Assembly: GCA_035298905.1 (NCBI GenBank)
Contig: DATGXQ010000126.1
Location: 1,296 to 65,295 of the forward strand
Origin: Nostocaceae cyanobacterium
GTDB taxonomy: Bacteria > Cyanobacteriota > Cyanobacteriia > Cyanobacteriales > Nostocaceae
Length of the DNA stretch: 64,000 bases
Direction: 5' to 3'
The position numbers were made by a program, and so were the translations under genes. Below, one piece after another: positions 4,688-62,639 of this stretch (position 1 is the first letter of the stretch; the number at the start of each line of letters is the position of its first letter). The notes under the pieces were generated by a model that ran no database searches, had not been told where the DNA came from, and saw only the letters and a list, made by a program, of their open reading frames with translations.

Positions 4688-5041
4688 ATGAAGCACAAAG
4701 GAAACTCAAGACACAAAAAAGAATCAAGAGTCTCTCCGGCAGGAAGAGAGTACATCCAGATATCTTTGAGAAGTGAAATAGCTCAAGCAGTTAGGGAACA
4801 CGCTGAAGTCAACGGAAAGTACATCAGTTACATGACTGATGCCGCCTTTGCAATGTACCTGGGCATTGCGTTAAATGATGCTGAGATTCCTGAATTGATG
4901 CCTGTAAACATTCCTAGTAATCTTTGCTTAGAGTTGTCGGCGATCGCTTCTCGCACAGGAATCTCTAGAGAACAACTAATTAATACAGCGATTACTCAAT
5001 ACCTAGAAAGCTTGAAAAAGGTTCTTCCTGTAGCATCTTAG
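4688..5041 (+). CDS. hypothetical protein with two ribbon-helix-helix-like segments
   Basis: REYIQISLRSEIAQAVREHAE and LCLELSAIASRTGISREQLINTAITQYL both look like a beta strand followed by a helix (RHH units). Divergent from the XRE gene. Confidence 0.45.
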   Translation: MKHKGNSRHKKESRVSPAGREYIQISLRSEIAQAVREHAEVNGKYISYMTDAAFAMYLGIALNDAEIPELMPVNIPSNLCLELSAIASRTGISREQLINTAITQYLESLKKVLPVAS

Positions 5042-15270: not shown

Positions 15271-15300
15271 TTAAAAATTAAAAATTAAAAATTAAAAATT
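15271..15300. repeat. STRR heptamer array (TTAAAAA) x4
   Basis: Read directly. Confidence 0.9.
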
Positions 15301-15403
15301 ACAGCAGGGAACAGGGAACAGGGAACAGGGAACAGGGTTGAAACTCCTTTAGCATCAGTCTTTGTTATTAACTTCTGTACTTCATTTACCCGAAACGTGC
15401 TGT
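15301..15403 (+). repeat. MITE-like small dispersed repeat, family A (ACAGCAG, (GGGAACA)n, ~60-bp tail, CTGCTGT-like end)
   Basis: Shares its ends and tail with 24157-24266, 30242-30344, 55162-55264, 56796-56894 and 62442-62639. Confidence 0.8.
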
Positions 15404-15455
15404 AAAAATTATCAGCAGTGAAAAAGTTTAATTTATACCAAAGTTATTCAATTAA

Positions 15456-24156: not shown

Positions 24157-24266
24157 ACAGCAGGGAACGGGGAACAGGGAACAGGTAACAGGGAACAGGG
24201 TTGAAAGTCTTTTGGCGTAAGGCTTTGTCCCTCAACTTTGTACCTCATTTACCTGAAATATACTGT
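24157..24266 (+). repeat. MITE-like repeat, family A
   Basis: ACAGCAGGGAACGGGGAACAGGGAACAGGTAACAGGGAACAGGGTTGAAAGTC...CATTTACCTGAAATATACTGT. Confidence 0.8.
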
Positions 24267-24775
24267 AAAAATTTCATAATCATAAATAACGCGCTTTGAT
24301 GAACTTTTCCATCAAGGCGCGTTAATTGTTATTTATTGGTTTGTGACAAAATTTTAAGCTCTGGGTGAAAGTTAAGTGTAGAAATGTAAACTATTTTTTC
24401 AGAAAACGCTCATGATTGTGATGATGCTGGCACTGGTCAACATGATTAAAGCACCCATCACTAAGGTATTAGGGAGTTTGGAGTTCTGCATAGTTGGTCA
24501 TTCCTCATGAATTGAGTATATTTACTAACGATATCAATTCCATTATGAATAGTTATCGGAATAGTATAAAAATTAAAATAATGTAAATTTTCTTAGCAAA
24601 TATGAGATTAAGTAGTCACTTTGATTTGATACAATTTCTTGATAAGTGGGTTTTACCCCTCTCAAGTACGGATAGCCCCACAACATAAATACCTACTAGC
24701 CGACCGGAGTGTGTGCCTTGATGCTGTAAGATAAAGCTTTATCAAGGCAAATAGTATTTTGGTCAAAAAATAATC

Positions 24776-30078: not shown

Positions 30079-30241
30079 CTCCACAACAAGACTTTTTCAG
30101 CAAACCCTACTTAGAGATAAAACCTTTGGCAGCAACTAATAAAATCTGATAGAGGAAGTGAACAAGTAATGCCAATTCAAAATTCAAAATTGGGAAAGTC
30201 AAGTTTGCTTAGGGTTGCCCGATTTACATCCGTTACCTTAT

Positions 30242-30344
30242 ACAGCAGATTTCAGGTAAATGAGGTACAAATTTTAAGAACAAAGCCATATACCAAGAGG
30301 CTTTCAACCCTGTTCCCTGTTAAGAGTTCCCTGTTCCCTGCTGT
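30242..30344 (-). repeat. MITE-like repeat, family A (inverted orientation)
   Basis: ACAGCAGATTTCAGGTAAATGAGGTACAAA...CTTTCAACCCTGTTCCCTG...CTGCTGT. Confidence 0.8.
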
Positions 30345-30489
30345 AATAGTAAATTGGAATTATAAGAGCAATGACAAGATGATCGCTATACCGTTTATAG
30401 CCAGCACTATTAATACCAATTTACTAAAAGAGTGTAACAACTATAAATCGTCAAATCCTGATCAAATCTGGTCTTACCCATTTTGAATT

Positions 30490-39928: not shown

Positions 39929-40984
39929 ATGGAAGCTAATTTTAGCCGCAGAAAATTCATAATTTATGGTGCAGCTACCTTTAGTACTAGCTTACTTTTA
40001 AAAGCGTGTGCTAACAACTCCTCACCTACACCAACAGAGACAATTAGTGGAAATGGATTTAAAATAGCGATCGCACTTCCCGGAGTCATCACAGATCAAG
40101 CTTGGAATCAGTCCGGTTACGAAGGTGTAAACCTTGCAAAACAAAGTTTAGGTGCAGAAATCGCTTATGTCGAAAAAGTAGCACAAGCGGATCAAGCGGA
40201 AGTATTAACAGATTTTGCTCGTAAAGGCTACAATGTAGTATTTGCTCATGGTGGACAGTTTGATGCAGCTGTAGAACAAGTTGCGTCACAATTTCCTAAT
40301 ACCTTTTTTATAGCAGTTAACGGTTCTATCAAAGGTGAAAATATCGCTGCTTTGCGAATAGACCATATCCAAGCCAGTTATTTATGCGGGATTATTGGTG
40401 CTACGCTAACCAAATCTAATAAATTAGCCTATATTGCTGGACAGGAATTTGAGGCTACCCAACAAGAATTAAGAGGCTTTGAATTAGGAGCAAAATCAGT
40501 TAAACCTAATATCCAAATCACATCTACTTTTACAGGTGACTGGAATGATATCGCTAAAGCTAAAGAAGCAACTCTCGCTTTAATTTCTACAGGCAATGAT
40601 GTGATTTTCCAATGGTTAGATAATGCCTCACCCATAGTTTTACAAACTGCTAGTGATAAAGGTGTTTATGCCTTTGGTAATACAAAAGACCAGTTAGACA
40701 TTGCCCCTAAAGCAGTATTAACCAGTGCTGTAAAACGGTTAGATTTAGCTATAGAGTTTTTAGCAAAATTAGCACAGGAAAAGAAATTAAAAGGAGAAAT
40801 CTATACAATAGGCTTAGAAAAACCAGATATACTAAATTTAGGTAAATTTGGGGCAGCAGTTACGGAAGCAGTACAGCAAAAAGTCCAAACTGTCAAAACA
40901 GAAATCGTTAGTAAGAAAATTGTGTTTGAACCATGTAAAGAAGGCGATAAAGATACGCTCTGTATAAAGTCTGCCTCAAAATAA
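39929..40984 (+). CDS. BMP-family (PnrA/Med-like) ABC transporter substrate-binding lipoprotein
   Basis: Lipobox LLLKAC, then FKIAIALPGVITDQAWNQSGYEG. Confidence 0.8.
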   Translation: MEANFSRRKFIIYGAATFSTSLLLKACANNSSPTPTETISGNGFKIAIALPGVITDQAWNQSGYEGVNLAKQSLGAEIAYVEKVAQADQAEVLTDFARKGYNVVFAHGGQFDAAVEQVASQFPNTFFIAVNGSIKGENIAALRIDHIQASYLCGIIGATLTKSNKLAYIAGQEFEATQQELRGFELGAKSVKPNIQITSTFTGDWNDIAKAKEATLALISTGNDVIFQWLDNASPIVLQTASDKGVYAFGNTKDQLDIAPKAVLTSAVKRLDLAIEFLAKLAQEKKLKGEIYTIGLEKPDILNLGKFGAAVTEAVQQKVQTVKTEIVSKKIVFEPCKEGDKDTLCIKSASK

Positions 40985-41061
40985 ATTATCAAATTCCTAC
41001 AGAATTTTTGCTGATTTACACTTCTATATGATACCCTTGAATATAGTAATAAAAACCATCT

Positions 41062-41502
41062 TCATTTTATTTTCGCACCTGACTTTATCTTACGCAAGGT
41101 GATTGAACTAGATGATGAATCACTATATTCAACATTAATAACACAATAGCGATCGCTTCCCAGAGAAATCACACTGCCAGTGAATACCATCTCCTCGCGT
41201 GACTGCTGTGAGGTAGGGTCAAGGATTGCAAGGATTGCACTCGTACGAGGTGCTATCACACCCTTATCATTTGGTAGCTCCCTTTCCCAAATATTAGCAA
41301 CACCTACTCGATAGTTGGAAATTGTCCCTACTGTGTTTGAGCCGATTGTTATCTCATTACTAATCGTTGCTTTCTCCAAAGAACCACAGGTCGAACGTAC
41401 TAATAATGACCTTGGTATTTTTGGGGTGGTAGTTTTCGGTGCTGTACAGGCGAGTAATCCCCAAGCAATTATCGCTGCAAATACCAATTTTTTATCGACC
41501 AT
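41062..41502 (-). CDS. lipoprotein, paralog 2 (candidate immunity/inhibitor)
   Basis: MVDKKLVFAAIIAWGLLAC (lipobox). By eye about 60-65% identical to the upstream 140-aa protein. Confidence 0.6.
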   Translation of the reverse strand: MVDKKLVFAAIIAWGLLACTAPKTTTPKIPRSLLVRSTCGSLEKATISNEITIGSNTVGTISNYRVGVANIWERELPNDKGVIAPRTSAILAILDPTSQQSREEMVFTGSVISLGSDRYCVINVEYSDSSSSSITLRKIKSGAKIK

Positions 41503-41576
41503 TGATAATAGCCTCAATGAAGAATGAGCGCACTTTGTCAAGTGCATCCATCTTTTTTACTTCTTGTTCTTATGCT

Positions 41577-41999
41577 TTACGGTATCTTCCGCAGAGTAAC
41601 TGAACCGTATTTTGAGTTTCCTCCATCAACATGAACAACACAGTAGCGATCGGTTCCCAGGGAAATTACACTGCCAGCAAATACATCCTCATCATGTGAC
41701 TGCTTTGTGCTAGGGTCAAGGATCGCAAGAATTGCACTTATACGAGGTGCTATCACACCTTTATCATCTGGGAGCTCCCGTTCCCCAACATTAACAACAC
41801 CTACTGCATAGTTGGATATTGTCCCTACTGTGTTTTCATTGATAGTTATTTCATCACTAATCATTGGTTTCTCCACAAAACTACAGGTCGAAGGTACTAC
41901 TGATGATTTAGATATTTTTGCAGGGGTGGTTGTTGGTGCTGCACAAGCGATCGCTCCCCAAACAATTATTGCTGTACATACCAATTTTTGATCAACCAT
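41577..41999 (-). CDS. lipoprotein, paralog 1 (candidate immunity/inhibitor)
   Basis: MVDQKLVCTAIIVWGAIAC (lipobox). Its start overlaps the stop of the protease gene by 8 nt. Confidence 0.6.
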   Translation of the reverse strand: MVDQKLVCTAIIVWGAIACAAPTTTPAKISKSSVVPSTCSFVEKPMISDEITINENTVGTISNYAVGVVNVGERELPDDKGVIAPRISAILAILDPSTKQSHDEDVFAGSVISLGTDRYCVVHVDGGNSKYGSVTLRKIP

Positions 42000-43185
42000 T
42001 AATCATAACCTCAGCGAAGAATTTGTGCACTGTTTCGATGTCCATCCATCCATCACCGCGTGGGTGGCGGTAACCCCAAGGATTGAACAGCTTAGTTCGT
42101 TTCTGGGATGGGTCTACATCTATGATGGTATAGGCGTGATTGAAGGGTATACGTTCACTATTAAATATCGCTATCGCTTCTCTTGAAGCCTTTTGTTCTT
42201 CGGGTGAGCTAACCGTTATCATTTGCTTATTCTTCTTCGCCTGAACCAATATATTCATGAAATCATCTACGGATATTTTCTGCGGATTGAAAGCACCTAC
42301 TTTTTTATTAGTCATATCTTTGATCGCACTTGCAGGACTACCGCCATTATTAATCGCGTCAATCCCGCCTTTCTGCTGTGCGTAAGCTTTCTCAATGATG
42401 AGTGGCCAAAAAGCCTTGCGATCCATCACTTTCCCATGCTTACCAACCAAGAAGTCTGCTGTGACTGTCTGTTTAGCTCGCCAATGGGCGAAGCCAATCC
42501 CCTTGAATGTTACGGTATAAGTGCCATTCCCGTTATCCTGAATCATGTTGACTATTAGCTGGGGATCTTTGTTGACGATCGCAGCCATAGCCGCAAAGAA
42601 AAAGCAGTTATTGACTCCACCTTGTCCAATGTCGTCCAAGCTGGGTGGGAGGATATTTCCTTTTTTATCTCTAGCCCAGAGTGTAGCTCCTGGTATACGG
42701 TGTGTAGGCTGCGTTGGTTTTGGTTTATTACCCTTGAGTTGAATAAGTGGATCGATGGGAGTCTTGACTGGTGTTTTTTCCTCTGATTCCTGGTGCTGAA
42801 TCCTATTCACCAAGGGTTTGAGCCTGATTTGTTGGTCTTCCTGTTGTTCCTTGGTTTGGAAAGATGGAGTTTCAGGTGCATGAATGTGTTGCACTACTTC
42901 CTGTGCTACTTGATCCGCTTCTTGCGCGTATTTGTCACCAATTTGACCAATTTTGAGTTTTAGCTGTATTGTAGGAGGTTTGTGGGTTGGGCGATTAGTA
43001 ACTATAGATGAATCGTGGTAGTTCCCTTCAGATGCTTTGATTTTTTCATATTCTTCTGCTGATATTGGTTTTCTTTCTTCCTGTTTGGGTTGCAAAAAGA
43101 ATTTGGATGGTACAAATTGATTTGTAGGTGGTGTATGAGCAGATTTTGAGGAGTTTTGGTTATTCCTCTGTTGTTTATGGTACAT
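41992..43185 (-). CDS. calpain-type (peptidase C2-like) cysteine protease with a DUF4157-style N-terminal leader
   Basis: Triad contexts QGGVNNCFFFAAMAAI, FNHAYTIIDV and KLFNPWGY. Leader IQLKLKIGQIGDKYAQEADQVAQEVV. Confidence 0.7.
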   Translation of the reverse strand: MYHKQQRNNQNSSKSAHTPPTNQFVPSKFFLQPKQEERKPISAEEYEKIKASEGNYHDSSIVTNRPTHKPPTIQLKLKIGQIGDKYAQEADQVAQEVVQHIHAPETPSFQTKEQQEDQQIRLKPLVNRIQHQESEEKTPVKTPIDPLIQLKGNKPKPTQPTHRIPGATLWARDKKGNILPPSLDDIGQGGVNNCFFFAAMAAIVNKDPQLIVNMIQDNGNGTYTVTFKGIGFAHWRAKQTVTADFLVGKHGKVMDRKAFWPLIIEKAYAQQKGGIDAINNGGSPASAIKDMTNKKVGAFNPQKISVDDFMNILVQAKKNKQMITVSSPEEQKASREAIAIFNSERIPFNHAYTIIDVDPSQKRTKLFNPWGYRHPRGDGWMDIETVHKFFAEVMING

Positions 43186-43424
43186 TTCCTTTTGCTTGGT
43201 GGTATTTGGTAATAATGCAGTAGCGCGTATTCATAACGAATTACAAGTAGTATGACATACTACCTTAAGAATTGATAGCCTTATCTATACAAATTTTATA
43301 ATTATTTCTACTGGTAAATACTTACTTGATGTTTTGATCAACTAATCGCGCCTATTATTTCGCTCCCAAATGCTGGGAAACAGACGATCGCCCACCGCAA
43401 GCGATCGCCTATTCATCTCTTTTA

Positions 43425-44285
43425 CTAAAAAACTCCAACCCAACCTTTTATTTCTGCTTCAGTTAAAGGTCTTTCTAATTTTGCATATTCACTTTTAGCA
43501 GCTTGTAAAATGTGTTTCATTTGCACATCTTCACCTGCATCCGCAGCCAAGAAAGCTGCATTTAAGGCAATATTACGAATATTACCTCCAGATACATTTA
43601 ACTGTGCTAACAATTCGGGGTCTAAATCTTTGGTTGGTGTCTGTTTGGGGAAAATCCGTTGCCAAATTTCAGCCCGTTGGTTAGCATCAGGAAAGGGAAA
43701 TTGCACAATAAATCGAATCCGGCGTAAAAAGGCTTGGTCTAGTGAACTTTTTAAGTTAGTAGTGAGGATTGCTAAACCCCGATAGGCTTCCATTCTTTGT
43801 AGTAAATAACCCACTTCGATATTTGCATGACGGTCATGGCTATCTTTGACTTCACTACGTTTCCCAAATAAAGCATCAGCTTCATCAAACAGTAAGATAG
43901 CACCGCCATATTCTGCTGCATCAAATACCCGACGCAGATTTTTTTCTGTTTCCCCGATATATTTACTAACTACTTGGCTTAAATCTATGCGGTACAAATC
44001 TAAATTTAATTCATTCGCAATCACCTCTGCGGCTAAAGTTTTACCTGTACCACTAGCACCGGCAAATAAGGCACTAATGCCTAAACCCCGACCACCTTTT
44101 TTACCGAATCCCCACTTTTCATAAACTGTCATTCTTTGACGGACATGAGCAGAAATATCTTGTAATACTTGACGCTGGTTATCTGGTAAAATTAAATCTT
44201 CCCATGTTGTACCTGGTTCTATGGGTTGGGCTAGTTCATGCAATCGGGGGCGGGCTTGAGAACGACAACTATCCCAAATAATCAT
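43425..44285 (-). CDS. AAA+ ATPase, short form (resembles the C-terminal module of Afp15-type, contractile-injection-system-associated ATPases)
   Basis: Walker A GASGTGKT, Walker B LLFDEADALF and second region of homology TTNLKSSLDQAFLRR. Confidence 0.75.
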   Translation of the reverse strand: MIIWDSCRSQARPRLHELAQPIEPGTTWEDLILPDNQRQVLQDISAHVRQRMTVYEKWGFGKKGGRGLGISALFAGASGTGKTLAAEVIANELNLDLYRIDLSQVVSKYIGETEKNLRRVFDAAEYGGAILLFDEADALFGKRSEVKDSHDRHANIEVGYLLQRMEAYRGLAILTTNLKSSLDQAFLRRIRFIVQFPFPDANQRAEIWQRIFPKQTPTKDLDPELLAQLNVSGGNIRNIALNAAFLAADAGEDVQMKHILQAAKSEYAKLERPLTEAEIKGWVGVF

Positions 44286-44427
44286 ATCTAAAGGTGTTTG
44301 ATCTCCTTGGTCTATTTAGCGTCAGTACATTGATGCTTACTATAATCAAAAGTGTAACTTATTATTTAGTCACTATTGCTGAATTAAATTGGTAAATTTT
44401 AATATAATTACAGTATGTCACTTTTAA

Positions 44428-45918
44428 TTGCAAAATAATAAAATGATGCACTTACGCCTAGAAAATATAACTAAAGGCTTTGGTTCTTTTCTTGCTAACG
44501 ATAATATTAGTTTGAGTATAGAAGCTGGAAAAATTCATGCAATTTTAGGTGAAAATGGTGCAGGTAAATCTACTTTAATGAATATTATTAGTGGTCTTTA
44601 TCAACCAGATGCAGGACAAATCTATTTAGAAGAACAACCGGTAAAAATTACTTCACCTTATCAAGCGATTAAGTTGGGTATTGGCATGATTTATCAACAT
44701 TTTATGCTTGTACCCCAATTAAGTGTAGCAGAAAATATTATTTTAGGAACTGAAAATAATTGGCGATTGAATCTGCATCAAAAATCACAAGAAATTGCTA
44801 CTTTATCTCAAGCTTATCAATTAGAAATTAACCCTAAAGCTAAAGTAGAAGATTTACCAGTAGGAATGCAACAAAGGGTAGAAATTCTTAAAGTTCTTTA
44901 TCGTCAAGCCAAATTATTAATTTTGGATGAACCAACAGCAGTTTTAACACCTCCAGAAATCACTGCATTAATGAATATTTTGCGTCAATTAGCAGCAAAA
45001 GGAAACACAATTATTTTTATTAGTCATAAATTAGAAGAAGTAATGAATTTATGTGATACAATTACAGTATTACGTAAAGGTAAAGTTGTCGCAACAACAG
45101 ATATTAAAACTACGACACCACAGCAGTTAGCTAATTTAATGGTAGGACGAGATGTGGTGTTAAATTTGCAAAAGTCACCAGCAAAATCAGGAAAGGTAGT
45201 GTTATCAGTAGAGGGTTTACAAGTCGCAGACGATCGCGGCCTGTTGGCAGTTCGTAATATATCTTTACAATTACGGGAAGGGGAAATTTTAGGGGTTGCT
45301 GGTGTAGACGGAAATGGACAGCGAGAGTTAGCTGACGCTATAGCTGGTTTACGAAAACTACAAAAGGGAAAAATGCAAATTGCAGGAAACATAGTCAAAA
45401 TAGGATATATCCCAGAAGATAGACAAAAAATCGGTTTAGTGATGCAGTTTAATATTGGTGAAAATTTAATTTTAAAGGCTTTTAATCAATTACCATTTTC
45501 TCGTTATTTTCTATTACAAAAATCAGCTATTAAAAACCATGCCAAAAGAGCGATACAAGATTATGATATTCGCGGAATAGGGGAAAATACACAAGTCAGC
45601 TATTTATCAGGAGGAAATCAACAAAAAGTAGTTTTAGCACGAGAATTAGCGGGAGAACCTACCTTGATTATAGCAATGCAACCCACGCGGGGGCTAGATG
45701 TAGGAGCGATGGAAGCAGTACATCACAAGTTATTAAAAGAACGCGATCGCGGTGCAGCGATTTTGTATATTTCTACTGAGTTAGAGGAAGTCATAGCCAT
45801 GAGCGATCGCATTGCAGTAATGTACAAAGGTGAATTTGTAGAGATTTTGGAAGCTGAAAATGCCACAGCTGAAAAAATTGGTTTGTTGATGGGTGGTGGG
45901 AAGATTATTGATAACTAA
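44428..45918 (+). CDS. ABC transporter ATP-binding protein with duplicated ATPase domains (nucleoside/sugar type)
   Basis: GENGAGKST, LSGGNQQK and two ABC cassettes. Confidence 0.85.
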   Translation: MQNNKMMHLRLENITKGFGSFLANDNISLSIEAGKIHAILGENGAGKSTLMNIISGLYQPDAGQIYLEEQPVKITSPYQAIKLGIGMIYQHFMLVPQLSVAENIILGTENNWRLNLHQKSQEIATLSQAYQLEINPKAKVEDLPVGMQQRVEILKVLYRQAKLLILDEPTAVLTPPEITALMNILRQLAAKGNTIIFISHKLEEVMNLCDTITVLRKGKVVATTDIKTTTPQQLANLMVGRDVVLNLQKSPAKSGKVVLSVEGLQVADDRGLLAVRNISLQLREGEILGVAGVDGNGQRELADAIAGLRKLQKGKMQIAGNIVKIGYIPEDRQKIGLVMQFNIGENLILKAFNQLPFSRYFLLQKSAIKNHAKRAIQDYDIRGIGENTQVSYLSGGNQQKVVLARELAGEPTLIIAMQPTRGLDVGAMEAVHHKLLKERDRGAAILYISTELEEVIAMSDRIAVMYKGEFVEILEAENATAEKIGLLMGGGKIIDN

Positions 45919-46457
45919 TAATTTCCCAATAACAAAGGTAGTGCCATACTAACTATTAGAGCATAAATAAAATCAAACCACACAATTCTCAAAAGATTGG
46001 CAATTCTGAACAATAAGGCAAGAATTTGACAGAAAAAGTAAAGAATATTTTCAGCAGTACCTTTCTTGATTTCTTTAAATACATTCAAAAAATTCTTTAT
46101 ATCTTCATTGCTAGGAAAAGCGTGCATACCAATAGAATAGCCAACCCAGATGAGCAGAAAAGTAATCAAAGGATTAGTGTCTGCGTCTTTTGTCAGAAAT
46201 TCCGATAAAACGACAGGATAAGTTAATACTGCACAAAGTATAGTATTAATAATTAAAGGTCCAACAGCAATTAACAATGCGTCTTTTAAATTCCTTACTT
46301 TCCCATGTTCAACATAACCAGCAGGATTTCCAATCCGAAAATAACAAACTTCGTACACAGGTACTTTTGCCAAATCGCAGAAAAATTTGTGTGCAGCTTC
46401 GTGAACAACCACACCGGGAAAAGTAGCTAAAGAAATTAACCAACCAGGAATAAACAT
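45915..46457 (-). CDS. membrane protein with an HExxH motif (DUF3267-like putative zincin)
   Basis: VVHEAAHKF at the N-terminus and 4 TM segments. Its stop overlaps the convergent ABC ATPase stop. Confidence 0.5.
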   Translation of the reverse strand: MFIPGWLISLATFPGVVVHEAAHKFFCDLAKVPVYEVCYFRIGNPAGYVEHGKVRNLKDALLIAVGPLIINTILCAVLTYPVVLSEFLTKDADTNPLITFLLIWVGYSIGMHAFPSNEDIKNFLNVFKEIKKGTAENILYFFCQILALLFRIANLLRIVWFDFIYALIVSMALPLLLGNY

Positions 46458-46459
46458 AT

Positions 46460-46855
46460 TTAGATTATATAAAATTTATCGAGATTTTTTTTGTATTTTT
46501 CAGGTATAGCTTTAGCCAGTCTTTGAACATCGGATTTATCTAAAATCAAACCTTTTAAATAAGATTCACCTTTTTCTATATCTGCTGGCTGGCCTTTAGT
46601 AAAATAAACCTCTGCTAAAGATATTTTAGCTTCTTGGGAACTAGGAATCTTGACTAAAACAGCTTCGTAATTCTTGATTGCTTCTGTATATTGTCGATTC
46701 TTATAGGCTTCCTGTCCAATTTTGAGTTCTTTGGAAGCTACAAAATATTTAGGGACAAAAATTAGGGAATATAATAAAGAAGCAAAAACAACAGCACCAA
46801 GGACTGTTACCCATAGAGGGTATTTGTGTGGTGCAACAGTATTAACGTTACTCAT
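46460..46855 (-). CDS. membrane-anchored TPR-like protein
   Basis: One TM segment, then YKNRQYTEAIKNYEAVL (TPR-like). Confidence 0.5.
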   Translation of the reverse strand: MSNVNTVAPHKYPLWVTVLGAVVFASLLYSLIFVPKYFVASKELKIGQEAYKNRQYTEAIKNYEAVLVKIPSSQEAKISLAEVYFTKGQPADIEKGESYLKGLILDKSDVQRLAKAIPEKYKKNLDKFYII

Positions 46856-47009
46856 GCTTTTGTTAGGTCTTGGGCTTGAGTCTTGATTGAAAGTGAGATA
46901 ATTTTTTTGGAAAAATCTATTTGTGAGTATAATATAAAACTACTGAACACTTTTTGTCAAGTTAACCATAGTAATTTTTTGGGCAGCAATAATTTCTCAA
47001 GTTAATTTA

Positions 47010-48092
47010 ATGCTACAGTCTACAAAGCTAATCAATTGGTTGAAACCAGCTTTACTCACTATTCTTTCTCCAGTTATAGCCATAATCTTGGCTTTACTGG
47101 CTGGTGCAATTTTGATTTGGCTGGCTGGTGGTAGTCCGATTACTGCTTATACTGCCTTATTTCAGGAATCCCTTTTTACCTATTTTGGTTTTGGTAATAC
47201 ACTGACCAAAATGACACCTTTATTATTTACCAGCTTAGGTGTTTTGTTGGCATTACGTGGGGGACAATTTAATATTGGTGGAGAAGGACAAATTTATTTT
47301 GGTGCTTTAGGTAGTAGTTTAATTGGTTTATATTGGCAAAATTTACCTGCATTAATTCATATACCTTTAGCTTTATTAGGAGGATTTTTATTAGGTGGAT
47401 TTTGGGGTTGGATACCTGGTTATTTAAAAGCTGTGCGGGGAGTAAATGAGGTTATTACTACTTTATTACTCAATTATATTGCTGTAAATTTAGTGAGTTA
47501 TTTGGTACAAAATCCTCTTAAAGCACCAAATGCACCTAGTCCTTATTCTCCTCTCATTGCTAAATCTGCATGGCTACCAATGATTTTAACTAATAGTTTT
47601 ACTCATGGAGGAATTTTACTAGCGTTAATTACAGCAGTAATTGTGTGGGTTTTGCTAGTAAAATCCCCTCTAGGATATCAAATTAAAGCAGTTGGATATA
47701 ACCCTATTGCTGCCCGTTATGCTAAGATTTCCGTGGAAAATACTATTATGTTGGTAATGGCTTTAGCTGGTGGTTTAGGGGGTTTAGGAGGTGCTTGTGA
47801 GGTACTGGGTGCAAAACATCGTTTGTATGAACAAGTTTCTCCGGGTTATGGTTTTGATGCTATAGCGATCGCCTTTTTAAGTCGTGGTAATATATTCGGT
47901 GTAGTGTTAAATTCGCTGTTCTTTGCTGCTTTAAATAGTGGTGCAAATGTTATGCAGCGCAGCGCAGGTGTACCTGTAACTATAGTTTACGCTATTCAAG
48001 GTTTAATGGTGTTATTTATAGCTATTAGTCTAGCAGTAGAAAGGGAAGTGAAAAATCAAATAGTTAAAACGCAGAGTAACGCAGAGGTTTAA
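47010..48092 (+). CDS. ABC transporter permease (BMP-type system)
   Basis: Multi-TM protein. FNIGGEGQ is typical of this permease family. Confidence 0.8.
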   Translation: MLQSTKLINWLKPALLTILSPVIAIILALLAGAILIWLAGGSPITAYTALFQESLFTYFGFGNTLTKMTPLLFTSLGVLLALRGGQFNIGGEGQIYFGALGSSLIGLYWQNLPALIHIPLALLGGFLLGGFWGWIPGYLKAVRGVNEVITTLLLNYIAVNLVSYLVQNPLKAPNAPSPYSPLIAKSAWLPMILTNSFTHGGILLALITAVIVWVLLVKSPLGYQIKAVGYNPIAARYAKISVENTIMLVMALAGGLGGLGGACEVLGAKHRLYEQVSPGYGFDAIAIAFLSRGNIFGVVLNSLFFAALNSGANVMQRSAGVPVTIVYAIQGLMVLFIAISLAVEREVKNQIVKTQSNAEV

Positions 48093-48125
48093 CGCGGAGG
48101 TACGCAGAGAAGTTTTTACTGTTTT

Positions 48126-49058
48126 ATGGAGAACTTACAATTTTTTTCCGATTATCTTGTGGCTAGTTTACATTTAGCAGTTCCTTTAGCTTTTGCGGCT
48201 TTGGGAGGGTTATATTCTGAACGTTCTGGAGTTTTAAATATTGCTTTAGAAGGAATGTTGCTAACTGGTGCTTTTAGTAGTGCGGCTGCAACTTTTTACA
48301 GTCATAATCCTTGGTTGGGGATATTTGCAGCTTTAGTTTTTGGCGGTTTGGTAGGTTTATTGCATGGTTTTTTATGCGTGACTTTGCGGGTAAATCAGTT
48401 AGTTTCTGGGTTAGCAATTAATTTAGTCGCATCAGGAATTACGGCGTTTTTATCACGGTTAGTATTTAATGCTAGTAACAATCAAAGATTACCAGGAATT
48501 GAAGCAATAACTATTCCCGGTTTAGCGAATATTCCTATAATTGGCAAGTTGTTATTTCAGCAAGATATTTTTGTTTATCTACTTTTGTTATTAATTATTT
48601 TTACTATTTATATTTTATTTTATACCAGCTTTGGTTTATCTTTACGAGCGGTAGGAGAATATCCCCAAGCAGTTGATACAGCAGGGGTTTCGGTTGTATG
48701 GTTGCGTTATTGTGCAGTCATAATTAGCGGTTGTTTAGCAAGTTTAGGAGGTGCTTATTTAGCATTAGTGCAGGTGAGATATTTTGCTGAAGGAATGAGT
48801 GCTGGTAAGGGATTTATTGCTATTGCTGCATTAATTTTTGGTAAATGGCATCCGGTGGGAAGTACATTAGCTTGTTTGTTATTTGGAGCAACTGAAGCTT
48901 TACAATTAAGAATCCAGGCTTTAGGTGCGAATATTCCTTATCAATTCCTATTAATGTTACCTTACGCGATCGCTATTTTGGCATTAGTCGGGTTAGTAGG
49001 TAAATCTACACCCCCTCAAGCCTTGGGAAAGCCTTATTTTAAAGGAAGTCGAGAATAA
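48126..49058 (+). CDS. ABC transporter permease (BMP-type system)
   Basis: Multi-TM protein with LNIALEGM, typical of the second permease. Confidence 0.8.
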   Translation: MENLQFFSDYLVASLHLAVPLAFAALGGLYSERSGVLNIALEGMLLTGAFSSAAATFYSHNPWLGIFAALVFGGLVGLLHGFLCVTLRVNQLVSGLAINLVASGITAFLSRLVFNASNNQRLPGIEAITIPGLANIPIIGKLLFQQDIFVYLLLLLIIFTIYILFYTSFGLSLRAVGEYPQAVDTAGVSVVWLRYCAVIISGCLASLGGAYLALVQVRYFAEGMSAGKGFIAIAALIFGKWHPVGSTLACLLFGATEALQLRIQALGANIPYQFLLMLPYAIAILALVGLVGKSTPPQALGKPYFKGSRE

Positions 49059-55067: not shown

Positions 55068-55161
55068 TGGCATAAAAAGCAATAAATATACAGAGAACGC
55101 TAAGGACAAAGCATTGCTTTGTCCCTACATTCCCAATTTTGAGTTTTGAATTTTGAGTTTT

Positions 55162-55264
55162 ACAGCATATTTCAGGTAAATGAGGTACAAGTTTTAGTCA
55201 CAAAGCCTTATGCTCAGAGACTTTCAACCCTGTTCCCTGTTCCCTGTTCCCTGTTCCCTGCTGT
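55162..55264 (-). repeat. MITE-like repeat, family A (inverted orientation), flanked by TTTTGAR heptamers
   Basis: ACAGCATATTTCAGGTAAATGAGGTACAAG...CTTTCAACC(CTGTTCC)n...CTGCTGT. Confidence 0.8.
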
Positions 55265-55287
55265 AAATTGTGAATTTTGAATTGGTC

Positions 55288-56475: not shown

Positions 56476-56820
56476 ATGAGAGCTGATGCAGAAATTCACA
56501 CCAAAACCACCTGTGAAGTAGAAAGTACACTGAAAATCATTGGTGGACGCTGGAAGGTTTTGATTATCAGAGAATTGATGTCAGGAGTAAAACGTTTTGG
56601 TGAACTCCAACGTTTATTACCGGGAATTACTCAAAAGATGCTCACTCAGCAACTACGAGAAATGGAAGAGGATGGAATCATACATCGAAAAGTATACCCT
56701 CAAATCCCCCCAAAGGTAGAATATTCTCTCACTCCTTTGGGGGAAAGTTTACAGCCTATTCTCTATGCAATGCATGAATGGGCTGTAAAACATTTACAGC
56801 AGGGAACAGGGAACTCTTAA
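56476..56820 (+). CDS. HxlR (DUF24/YodB-type) winged-helix transcriptional regulator
   Basis: [34 protein letters not shown]...[19 protein letters not shown]. Confidence 0.85.
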
Positions 56821-56894
56821 CAGGAAGGTTGAAAGTCTTTTAGCATAAGAATTTGTTCCTAACATTTGTACCTCATTTAGCTGAAATCTGCTGG
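56796..56894 (+). repeat. MITE-like repeat, family A, overlapping the last 8 codons of the HxlR-family gene
   Basis: ACAGCAGGGAACAGGGAACTCTTAACAGGAAGGTTGAAAGTC...TTAGCTGAAATCTGCTG. Confidence 0.8.
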
Positions 56895-62441: not shown

Positions 62442-62639
62442 CTGTAGGGAACAGGGAACAGGGAACAGGGAACAGGTGAAGCAGCGCGGTCTTCTCCCAA
62501 AGGGAGAGGCTAACGCCAAGGGGGTTTCCCCCATAAGCGACTGCTGAACCCGAAGGGGAACAGGGAACAGGGTTGAAAGTCTTTTAGCATCAGGCTTTGT
62601 TCCTAACATTTGTACCTCATTTAGCTGAAATCTGCTGTA
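62442..62639 (+). repeat. MITE-like repeat, family A, carrying a nested ~80-bp insertion (62476-62556)
   Basis: The (GGGAACA)n array is interrupted by GTGAAGCAGCGCGGTCTTCTCCCAAAGGGAGAGGCTAACGCCAAGGGGGTTTCCCCCATAAGCGACTGCTGAACCCGAAGG. The array then resumes, followed by the usual tail. Confidence 0.75.

Follow-up and report, generated by a model that had tools for sequence, protein, structure and literature searches.

A probable orphan cargo cassette of a contractile injection system in a Nostocaceae genome: a calpain-type protease with two putative lipoprotein partners beside a truncated loader ATPase gene

The window analyzed here, a stretch of 64,000 nucleotides from a Nostocaceae metagenome-assembled genome (MAG; assembly GCA_035298905.1, contig DATGXQ010000126.1, positions 1,296 to 65,295), carries on its minus strand four consecutive open reading frames (ORFs), which code for a 286-residue product with an AAA ATPase domain, a 397-residue protein with a calpain-type protease core, and two putative lipoproteins (Table 1). 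A first-pass annotation, made from the letters of the window, had presented them as an undescribed effector module related to extracellular contractile injection systems (eCIS). The positions it gave for the four ORFs and every motif it quoted from them were found again, together with the overlap at 41992-41999, by which the lipoprotein 1 ORF starts 8 nt ahead of the protease stop. The origin of each part of this cassette, its counterparts in other genomes and the way it may be connected with a contractile injection system (CIS) are the subject of this report.

Leader and catalytic core of the 397-residue protein

The N-terminal part of the 397-residue protein is a leader found in eCIS cargo. 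Residues 1-134 have 66% identity with the N-terminus of P0086, a DUF4157 protein encoded beside the loader ATPase in L004, the eCIS locus of a related Nostocaceae MAG (GCA_035299225.1). When residues 1-170 were used as the query of an exhaustive search, 1058 cluster representatives were retrieved at E<=1e-3, the majority of them DUF4157/eCIS_core proteins that carry diverse toxin domains. In a domain scan of 85 proteins, comprising the window protein and 84 leader-sharing matches, eCIS_core was present in 57 and a calpain domain in five, the window protein included; SLT, ribonuclease, Ntox16, ADP-ribosyltransferase, deamidase, endonuclease and GNAT domains were the other C-terminal domains. 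All near-invariant positions of the leader (Q74, K76, L77, G80, D84, Y86, E89, A90, D91 and A94) are kept in the window protein, whose sole deviation is an A at position 87 (A87) in place of the consensus E. The AlphaFold model of the leader has pLDDT values below 50 except for two short helices, one of which corresponds to the EAD motif.

DUF4157 is a marker of eCIS toxins, and DUF4157 proteins co-purify with the Anabaena CIS; in AlgoCIS a disordered N-terminal region is needed for loading, whereas DUF4157 is dispensable. The first-pass annotation had read the N-terminus as a DUF4157-style leader, which is upheld. The DUF4157 domain itself is lacking: the profile scan of the 397-residue protein gave no PF13699 match (Pfam, E<=0.1), and the protein has no HExxH motif, which most leader-sharing proteins carry about 130-150 residues past the EAD motif. 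A paralogous leader-calpain protein, P0002 (L007, 9273-10709, from a related MAG), contains in its leader/linker an exact internal duplication of about 50 residues, in which STKEEQEDQQISLKPLENRIQRQESEEETPLRFKEQWWKADMSANTIMNS occurs twice; this duplication shows the linker region to be prone to recombination.

The assignment of the C-terminal core to the calpains is solid, both on profile evidence and on the predicted structure. Pfam Peptidase_C2 matches residues 184-378 with E 4e-20, in an alignment with calpain-9, C194, H350 and N368 fall on the catalytic Cys, His and Asn, and the AlphaFold model of the core, with pLDDT above 95, matches the calpain-3 core in Foldseek (E 8.5e-15); the catalytic signature already recognized from the letters is thus borne out. 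Q188, C194, H350, N368 and W370 are near-invariant over 56 homologues, and the window protease keeps every near-invariant residue, the catalytic ones included. The replacement of the usual zincin by a calpain, put forward as a novelty, is not one: homologues at 45-59% identity very often also carry PF13699, fusions of DUF4157 with Peptidase_C2 are numerous, leader-calpain genes devoid of DUF4157 sit in true eCIS operons, and Peptidase_C2 is among the eCIS-enriched "cloud" domains in a supplementary table of Geller et al. 2021 (2 genes, odds ratio 29.6). The literature search found no discussion of Peptidase_C2 in eCIS beyond that supplement. A metagenome scan with the protease as query returned only two distant relatives, at 31% identity.

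The loader ATPase gene and its truncation

The 286-residue ORF matches the Pfam AAA family (E 4e-26), and its product is 94% identical at the amino acid level to residues 378-660 of the 660-residue WHD+AAA ATPase of L004, a locus whose gene order is two tube genes, sheath, Pvc16_N, histidine kinase, GerE regulator, Pvc16_N, ATPase and DUF4157 protein. It represents the 3′ 43% of a loader gene of about 660 residues of the Afp15/Pvc15 type and lacks the N-terminal WHD and D1 (377 residues). At the nucleotide level, positions 44315-43389 of the window align with 8427-9353 of L004 at 88.6% identity; the homology begins at nucleotide 1102 of the ATPase gene and runs for 30 nt 5′ of the ORF start, across an in-frame TAA, where IDQGDQTPLD-M in the window corresponds to IDKGEQTSLS-M in L004. 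The 48 nt that directly abut the fragment (44316-44363) match the inside of the 422-residue Pvc16_N gene of L004; in intact eCIS loci such a gene stands ahead of the loader ATPase gene. The contact of this scrap with the ATPase fragment implies an internal deletion of 1267 nt and the loss of everything further upstream. What had been described as a complete AAA+ ATPase, standing alone as a partner gene, has the AAA fold and motifs, but sequence comparison identifies it as a 5′-truncated relic that retains D2 only.

The proposed grouping of this ATPase with the eCIS loaders rather than with housekeeping AAA proteins is upheld by the identity with L004 and by the homologues in 80 genomic loci that encode the D2 domain (L013-L092), which were taken from the genome representatives of GTDB. 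The window's own MAG is not among the representatives scanned, and the best D2 match there is 87%; the fragment is 64-87% identical to the homologues as a whole. The D2-encoding gene has a complete 5′ end in 76 of these loci, and it codes for 613-906 residues in 75 of them and for 404 in the remaining one. With 64-87% identity in loci from Cyanobacteria, Chloroflexota, Acidobacteriota, Streptomyces, Bacteroidota and methanogenic archaea, the D2 AAA domain is unusually well conserved. Even among the closest relatives found, which are mostly cyanobacteria, the loader ATPase has only 33-58% identity in its N-terminal half. In the NCBI annotation the protein accessions pass from HLO84627 (protease) straight to HLO84628 (ABC ATPase), and the ATPase fragment has none. 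Locus tag 06375 belongs to lipoprotein 1 and 06395 to the gene after the ABC ATPase; tags 06380, 06385 and 06390 cover three features, two of which have protein accessions, and VK203_06385 is skipped, as a fragment treated as a pseudogene would be.

Other contigs of the same MAG apparently encode a complete loader ATPase and one more protein with the leader. P0391 (HLO86905) is a WHD+AAA ATPase of 659 residues, with a D2 93% identical to the fragment and an N-terminal part 58% identical to that of L004, and P0087 (HLO86232, VK203_14660) is a leader-bearing protein of 599 residues; both are attributed to this MAG because their accessions and locus tags place them in one series with the window genes (VK203_06370-06400). 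An intact injection system is probably present in the same genome. P0087 has a long C-terminal region rich in Ala, Lys, Glu and Gln, which is probably coiled-coil, and no Pfam domain; it may recall the tape-measure-related CIS effectors reported in Streptomyces.

An attempt to date the truncation relied on the 78 nt of non-coding relics, which differ from L004 at 14 positions that show no codon-position bias. All 14 mismatches lie in the last 44 nt; the initial stretch of 34 nt (44330-44363, in the Pvc16_N relic) is 100% identical to L004. The natural variability of the D1-D2 linker weakens this dating. The identity over 34 nt stands against a synonymous divergence (dS) of about 0.45 between the two genomes and could be due either to chance or to a retained regulatory element. 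An apparent excess of substitutions on the window lineage (13 against 4, with the family consensus as reference) was discarded as an artefact of distant outgroups, since the closer L013 and P0391 give equal rates.

The partner proteins and the setting of the cassette

The two lipoproteins, indicated as partner proteins 1 and 2, share 66-69% amino acid identity, with dS 0.39 and a ratio of non-synonymous to synonymous divergence (omega) of 0.54, and their genes form a tandem duplication with a repeat spacing of 497 nt. Their paralogy had been recognized in the first-pass annotation; the length of 161 residues of the second ORF has to be corrected, since this protein most likely starts at M16, which leaves 146 residues and is the start used both by NCBI (HLO84625) and in Logan. 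Members of the partner family have 45-69% identity to the cores of the window lipoproteins, with hidden Markov model (HMM) E-values of 1e-41 to 1e-43, and weak similarity to DUF6406. By inspection, an N-terminal hydrophobic stretch ending in Cys occurs in five of five cyanobacterial copies (AIAC and LLAC in the window, MAC, VAC and STC elsewhere), and no such extension occurs in the four copies from outside the cyanobacteria whose sequence was read (L010, L012, L096 and L098). The core has an all-beta AlphaFold model (core pLDDT 76-88, from a two-sequence alignment), the other four models being poor; the Foldseek search of this model against PDB gave nothing at E<=0.001 and no inhibitor-like match. 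From its conserved place in the genome, the partner is most likely a cognate immunity protein or an inhibitor of the calpain toxin.

A partner-family or small ORF follows the calpain gene in eight of eight homologous loci examined (L002, L007, L008, L010, L012, L096, L098 and L099, the last counted by gene order only, with an incomplete contig). In L098 the order is ATPase (732 residues), calpain (355 residues, no DUF4157), a 96-residue partner ORF, DUF4157 protein, Pvc16_N, sheath and tube; L010 and L012 have DUF4157-calpain genes within cargo arrays, each then followed by an ORF of 95-98 residues; L002, L007, L008 and L096 contain an orphan calpain gene and a small ORF, with no ATPase nearby. 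A calpain-domain ORF also lies immediately 3′ of a full-length ATPase gene in L014 and L050; these calpain domains are more distant and neither ORF reached the partner HMM, the contig of L050 ending 6 nt past its calpain ORF. Homologues in L098, L010, L012, L014 and L050 are thus close to eCIS core genes, whereas in the 64-kb window no such gene lies within about ten genes of the protease. Since the pair recurs without the ATPase, the recurrent unit is the calpain gene with its partner and not the four genes together, as had been suggested; nor are the lipoproteins newly appended, as they are the cyanobacterial form of a partner gene conserved beside the calpain.

Sheath, tube and Pvc16_N genes are missing from the whole 64-kb window, relics excepted, and the earlier remark that no sheath, tube or baseplate genes lie near the cassette therefore holds for the full length of the window. 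The cassette is flanked by a Bmp substrate-binding gene (39929-40984) and by an ABC-transporter ATPase gene (44428-45918), the permease genes of this Bmp-associated transporter being found at 47010 and 48126; these flanks are unlike those of L004, L002 and L007. Positions 43186-43279 align at 76-81% with the sequence 5′ of the calpain genes that stand as orphans in L002 and L007, and within the same range with the sequence upstream of the eCIS-linked cargo gene of L004; these roughly 95 nt of conserved sequence travel with the cargo gene. No tRNA, no insertion sequence and no flanking inverted or direct terminal repeats were found at the cassette, and the promoter/terminator scan yielded fewer promoter-like sites than shuffled sequence.

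The genes of the Bmp/PnrA-type ABC transporter (39929-49058) are all on the plus strand and are split twice by minus-strand genes, the first time by the cargo cassette. The second split contains a membrane protein of 180 residues (45915-46457), which has an HEAAH motif and matches Peptidase_M50 weakly, and a 131-residue TPR protein (46460-46855). A dispersed repeat of about 100 nt, probably a short dispersed repeat of cyanobacteria resembling miniature inverted-repeat transposable elements, is present in the window in at least six copies with 76-87% identity; it is also intergenic in L007 of the related MAG (2435-2570 and 4820-4927), and no copy lies inside the cassette.

Table 1. Coordinates of the cassette, its parts and the dispersed repeats in the 64-kb window
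Feature	Position	Strand	Length	Basis
Truncated ATPase ORF	43425-44285	minus	286 aa	
Protease ORF	41992-43185	minus	397 aa	
Lipoprotein 1 ORF (partner protein 1)	41577-41999	minus	140 aa	
Lipoprotein 2 ORF (partner protein 2)	41062-41547	minus	161 aa	
Relic of Pvc16_N-domain gene	44316-44363	minus	48 nt	89.6% nt identity to L004 7112-7159
5′-truncated Afp15/Pvc15-type eCIS loader ATPase, D2 AAA domain only	43425-44315	minus		L004 homology
Intergenic region 5′ of protease, including ~95 nt of conserved sequence	43186-43424	minus		Alignment to L002, L004, L007
N-terminal eCIS cargo leader of the 397-aa protein	42676-43185	minus	aa 1-170	Leader homology search
Conserved leader helix DKYAQEADQVAQEVV	42883-42933	minus	aa 85-101	Leader alignment
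Calpain-type (Peptidase_C2) core, predicted toxin domain	41992-42675	minus	aa 171-397	Pfam, alignment, model
Partner protein 1, lipoprotein-type signal peptide (…GAIAC) and all-beta core of ~95 aa	41577-41999	minus		Homology, model
Partner protein 2 from M16, lipobox LLAC	41062-41502	minus	146 aa	NCBI start
Dispersed ~100-nt repeat copies	15296-15432, 24170-24286, 30238-30348, 55158-55265, 56795-56886, 62556-62639	both orientations		Sequence identity

Interpretation and relation to known systems

The cassette is probably an orphan cargo/immunity cassette of an eCIS, or of a thylakoid-anchored CIS of the Nostocaceae type, that is loaded in trans. The idea of an orphan cargo, already present in the first-pass annotation, is retained; the locus represents a further instance of an established kind of system, the displaced end of a CIS operon, and not an undescribed kind of effector module. 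The cargo would consist of a disordered loading leader with the YxQEADxVA helix, fused straight to a calpain-type protease with no DUF4157 zincin. The ATPase relic would be the 3′ end of an eCIS operon, made of 48 nt of the Pvc16_N gene, the 1.27-kb deletion and the D2 half, which was carried along in a displacement of the operon's cargo end or which stayed when the remainder was lost. The protease may be transcribed from its own conserved upstream region, the intact 659-residue loader ATPase encoded elsewhere would recognize the leader and pack the protease into the tube, and the lipoproteins may shield the producer and its kin against incoming protease. A more far-reaching proposal, to which only a small probability is assigned, places the action of the calpain cargo of filamentous cyanobacteria in the periplasm or cell envelope: a thylakoid-anchored CIS that under stress fires outwards through the envelope of its own cell would deliver it, the protease would help to dismantle the envelope in ghost-cell formation, the lipoproteins would protect the neighbors in the filament, which share the periplasm, and the D2 fragment would act as a stand-alone cargo chaperone. 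If this were true, the partner would be exported as a lipoprotein only in cyanobacterial lineages because the cargo acts in that compartment, and the D2-only fragment would be the natural equivalent of a Pvc15 lacking N-D1.

Several observations weigh against the orphan cassette as described. The structural CIS genes of the window's MAG are deduced and were not seen; the deletion junctions are known from one MAG assembly, the independent Logan contig beginning inside the ATPase fragment; conserved adjacency is the only basis of the immunity role; and the omega of 0.4-0.6 of protease and partners fits an arms race and also relaxed constraint. The D2 fragment, moreover, is undecayed: none of 108 highly conserved columns is violated, Walker A and B are kept, the comparison with L004 gives dS 0.45 and omega 0.064, and its rate is that of the intact orthologue, the distances to L013 showing no excess and the 18 differences between fragment and L004, polarized by P0391, being about equally distributed. 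This points either to a recent truncation or to some function retained by the D2 piece. The second case, in which the D2-only ATPase would bind the leader and stabilize the calpain as its dedicated chaperone, with ATPase, protease and lipoproteins cooperating, is held to be unlikely. The intact ORF, with a start Met that is also present in the full-length protein, the conservation just described and the absence of acceleration agree with it, as do the data on Pvc15, where deletion of N-D1 left payload abundance unchanged and the authors considered D2 alone enough for chaperoning, not for ATPase activity or loading. A recent truncation would, however, give the same low omega, and the short form is nearly absent elsewhere, with 75 of 76 genomic homologues at 613-906 residues; calpain and partner stand together devoid of any ATPase at four other loci (L002, L007, L008 and L096); the ORF boundary is an in-frame stop within continuing homology, beside a scrap of another gene, which is the signature of a deletion; NCBI has no protein accession for the D2 ORF, and no promoter-like site was found 5′ of it on the minus strand.

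Similarly improbable is that the whole cassette is the decaying remnant of a lost injection-system locus, leaving protease and lipoproteins with no delivery route. The retention of all near-invariant residues by the protease, the integrity of both partner genes, one of which was duplicated and kept, the intact loader ATPase and further leader-bearing protein that the same MAG appears to hold, and the intact orphan calpain-partner pairs of several other genomes all speak against it, although the truncation of the ATPase, the lack of structural genes in the 64-kb window and the elevated omega of the protease (0.41) and of the partners (0.54-0.61) would be in line with decay, and the window's MAG is outside the genome collection scanned. 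An anti-phage defense pair resembling IetAS, that is an AAA ATPase with a protease, here a calpain instead of an S8 enzyme, was rejected as very improbable. The PADLOC IetA models match the ATPase with E 4.6e-33 and the NCBIfam IteA model is its top match, but the NCBIfam score of 104.7, with a cutoff of 510, is far too low for more than generic AAA similarity, and PADLOC has no match for the protease, which is of the C2 and not of the S8 type, or for the partners. The ATPase, itself only a fragment, is orthologous to eCIS loaders, with 94% identity to one of them and 64-87% to 80 genomic homologues; many of the D2-encoding loci have leader-bearing ORFs just downstream, and those inspected gene by gene are eCIS.

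An orphan cassette of this kind amends the annotation of the locus, with the ATPase as a pseudogene relic, the protease as cargo and the lipoproteins as probable immunity proteins. The calpain toxin and its DUF6406-like partner of about 95 residues form a testable pair, which recurs in settings as different as cargo arrays and orphan loci and has had no experimental characterization to date, Peptidase_C2 appearing only in a supplementary enrichment table. The work on the thylakoid-anchored CIS of Anabaena left the site of action of the cargo open, and the switch of the partner from a cytoplasmic to a lipoprotein form in cyanobacteria is a clue to it. Leader-bearing cargo genes with no DUF4157 lie scattered around genomes together with their conserved upstream sequence, which suggests that operon-centered surveys underestimate both the size and the mobility of CIS cargo repertoires.

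Among known systems, the closest are the eCIS-associated toxins (AlgoCIS Cgo1/Cgo2; Anabaena Alr3311/Alr3312; Geller et al. 2021; Danov et al. 2024; Weiss et al. 2022), with which the window protein shares the leader, including the QxKLxIG...DxYEQEADxVA helix, and a variable C-terminal toxin domain. The genes of these toxins are normally found just past the 3′ end of the loader ATPase gene. The window protein differs from them in lacking the DUF4157 zincin, in its location away from structural CIS genes and in the lipoprotein partners of an exported type that follow it. With the Afp15/Pvc15/Cis15 loaders the window D2 has in common 94% identity to the ATPase of an eCIS locus and intact Walker A/B motifs, but the ORF lacks the WHD/N-terminal domain and D1, which in Pvc15 are required for ATPase activity and loading. 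The protease shares fold, Cys/His/Asn triad and oxyanion Gln with the cores of calpain-1, -3 and -9, at 18-20% identity and with neither C2-like nor penta-EF-hand domains; the partner, an all-beta domain of about 95 residues, differs from calpastatin, which is a disordered peptide inhibitor.

Orphan toxin/immunity modules are also a feature of polymorphic toxin systems such as Rhs and CdiA-CT/CdiI, in which a toxin and immunity pair is displaced from the main locus. The window pair may be compared with them, as it keeps a conserved upstream stretch formed by the ATPase 3′ end, the upstream region and the leader; the delivery machine would in this case be a contractile injection system. Pairs of the type VI secretion system that act in the periplasm, such as Tse1/Tsi1, combine a toxin lacking a Sec signal with an immunity protein that is exported to this compartment, an arrangement that the window toxin, devoid of a Sec signal, and its putative exported immunity protein would resemble, with a different secretion machine. 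Compared with an eCIS toxin and its immunity protein, the cassette is unusual for the lack of DUF4157, for the lipoprotein-type partners and for the retained, undecayed relic of the ATPase D2.

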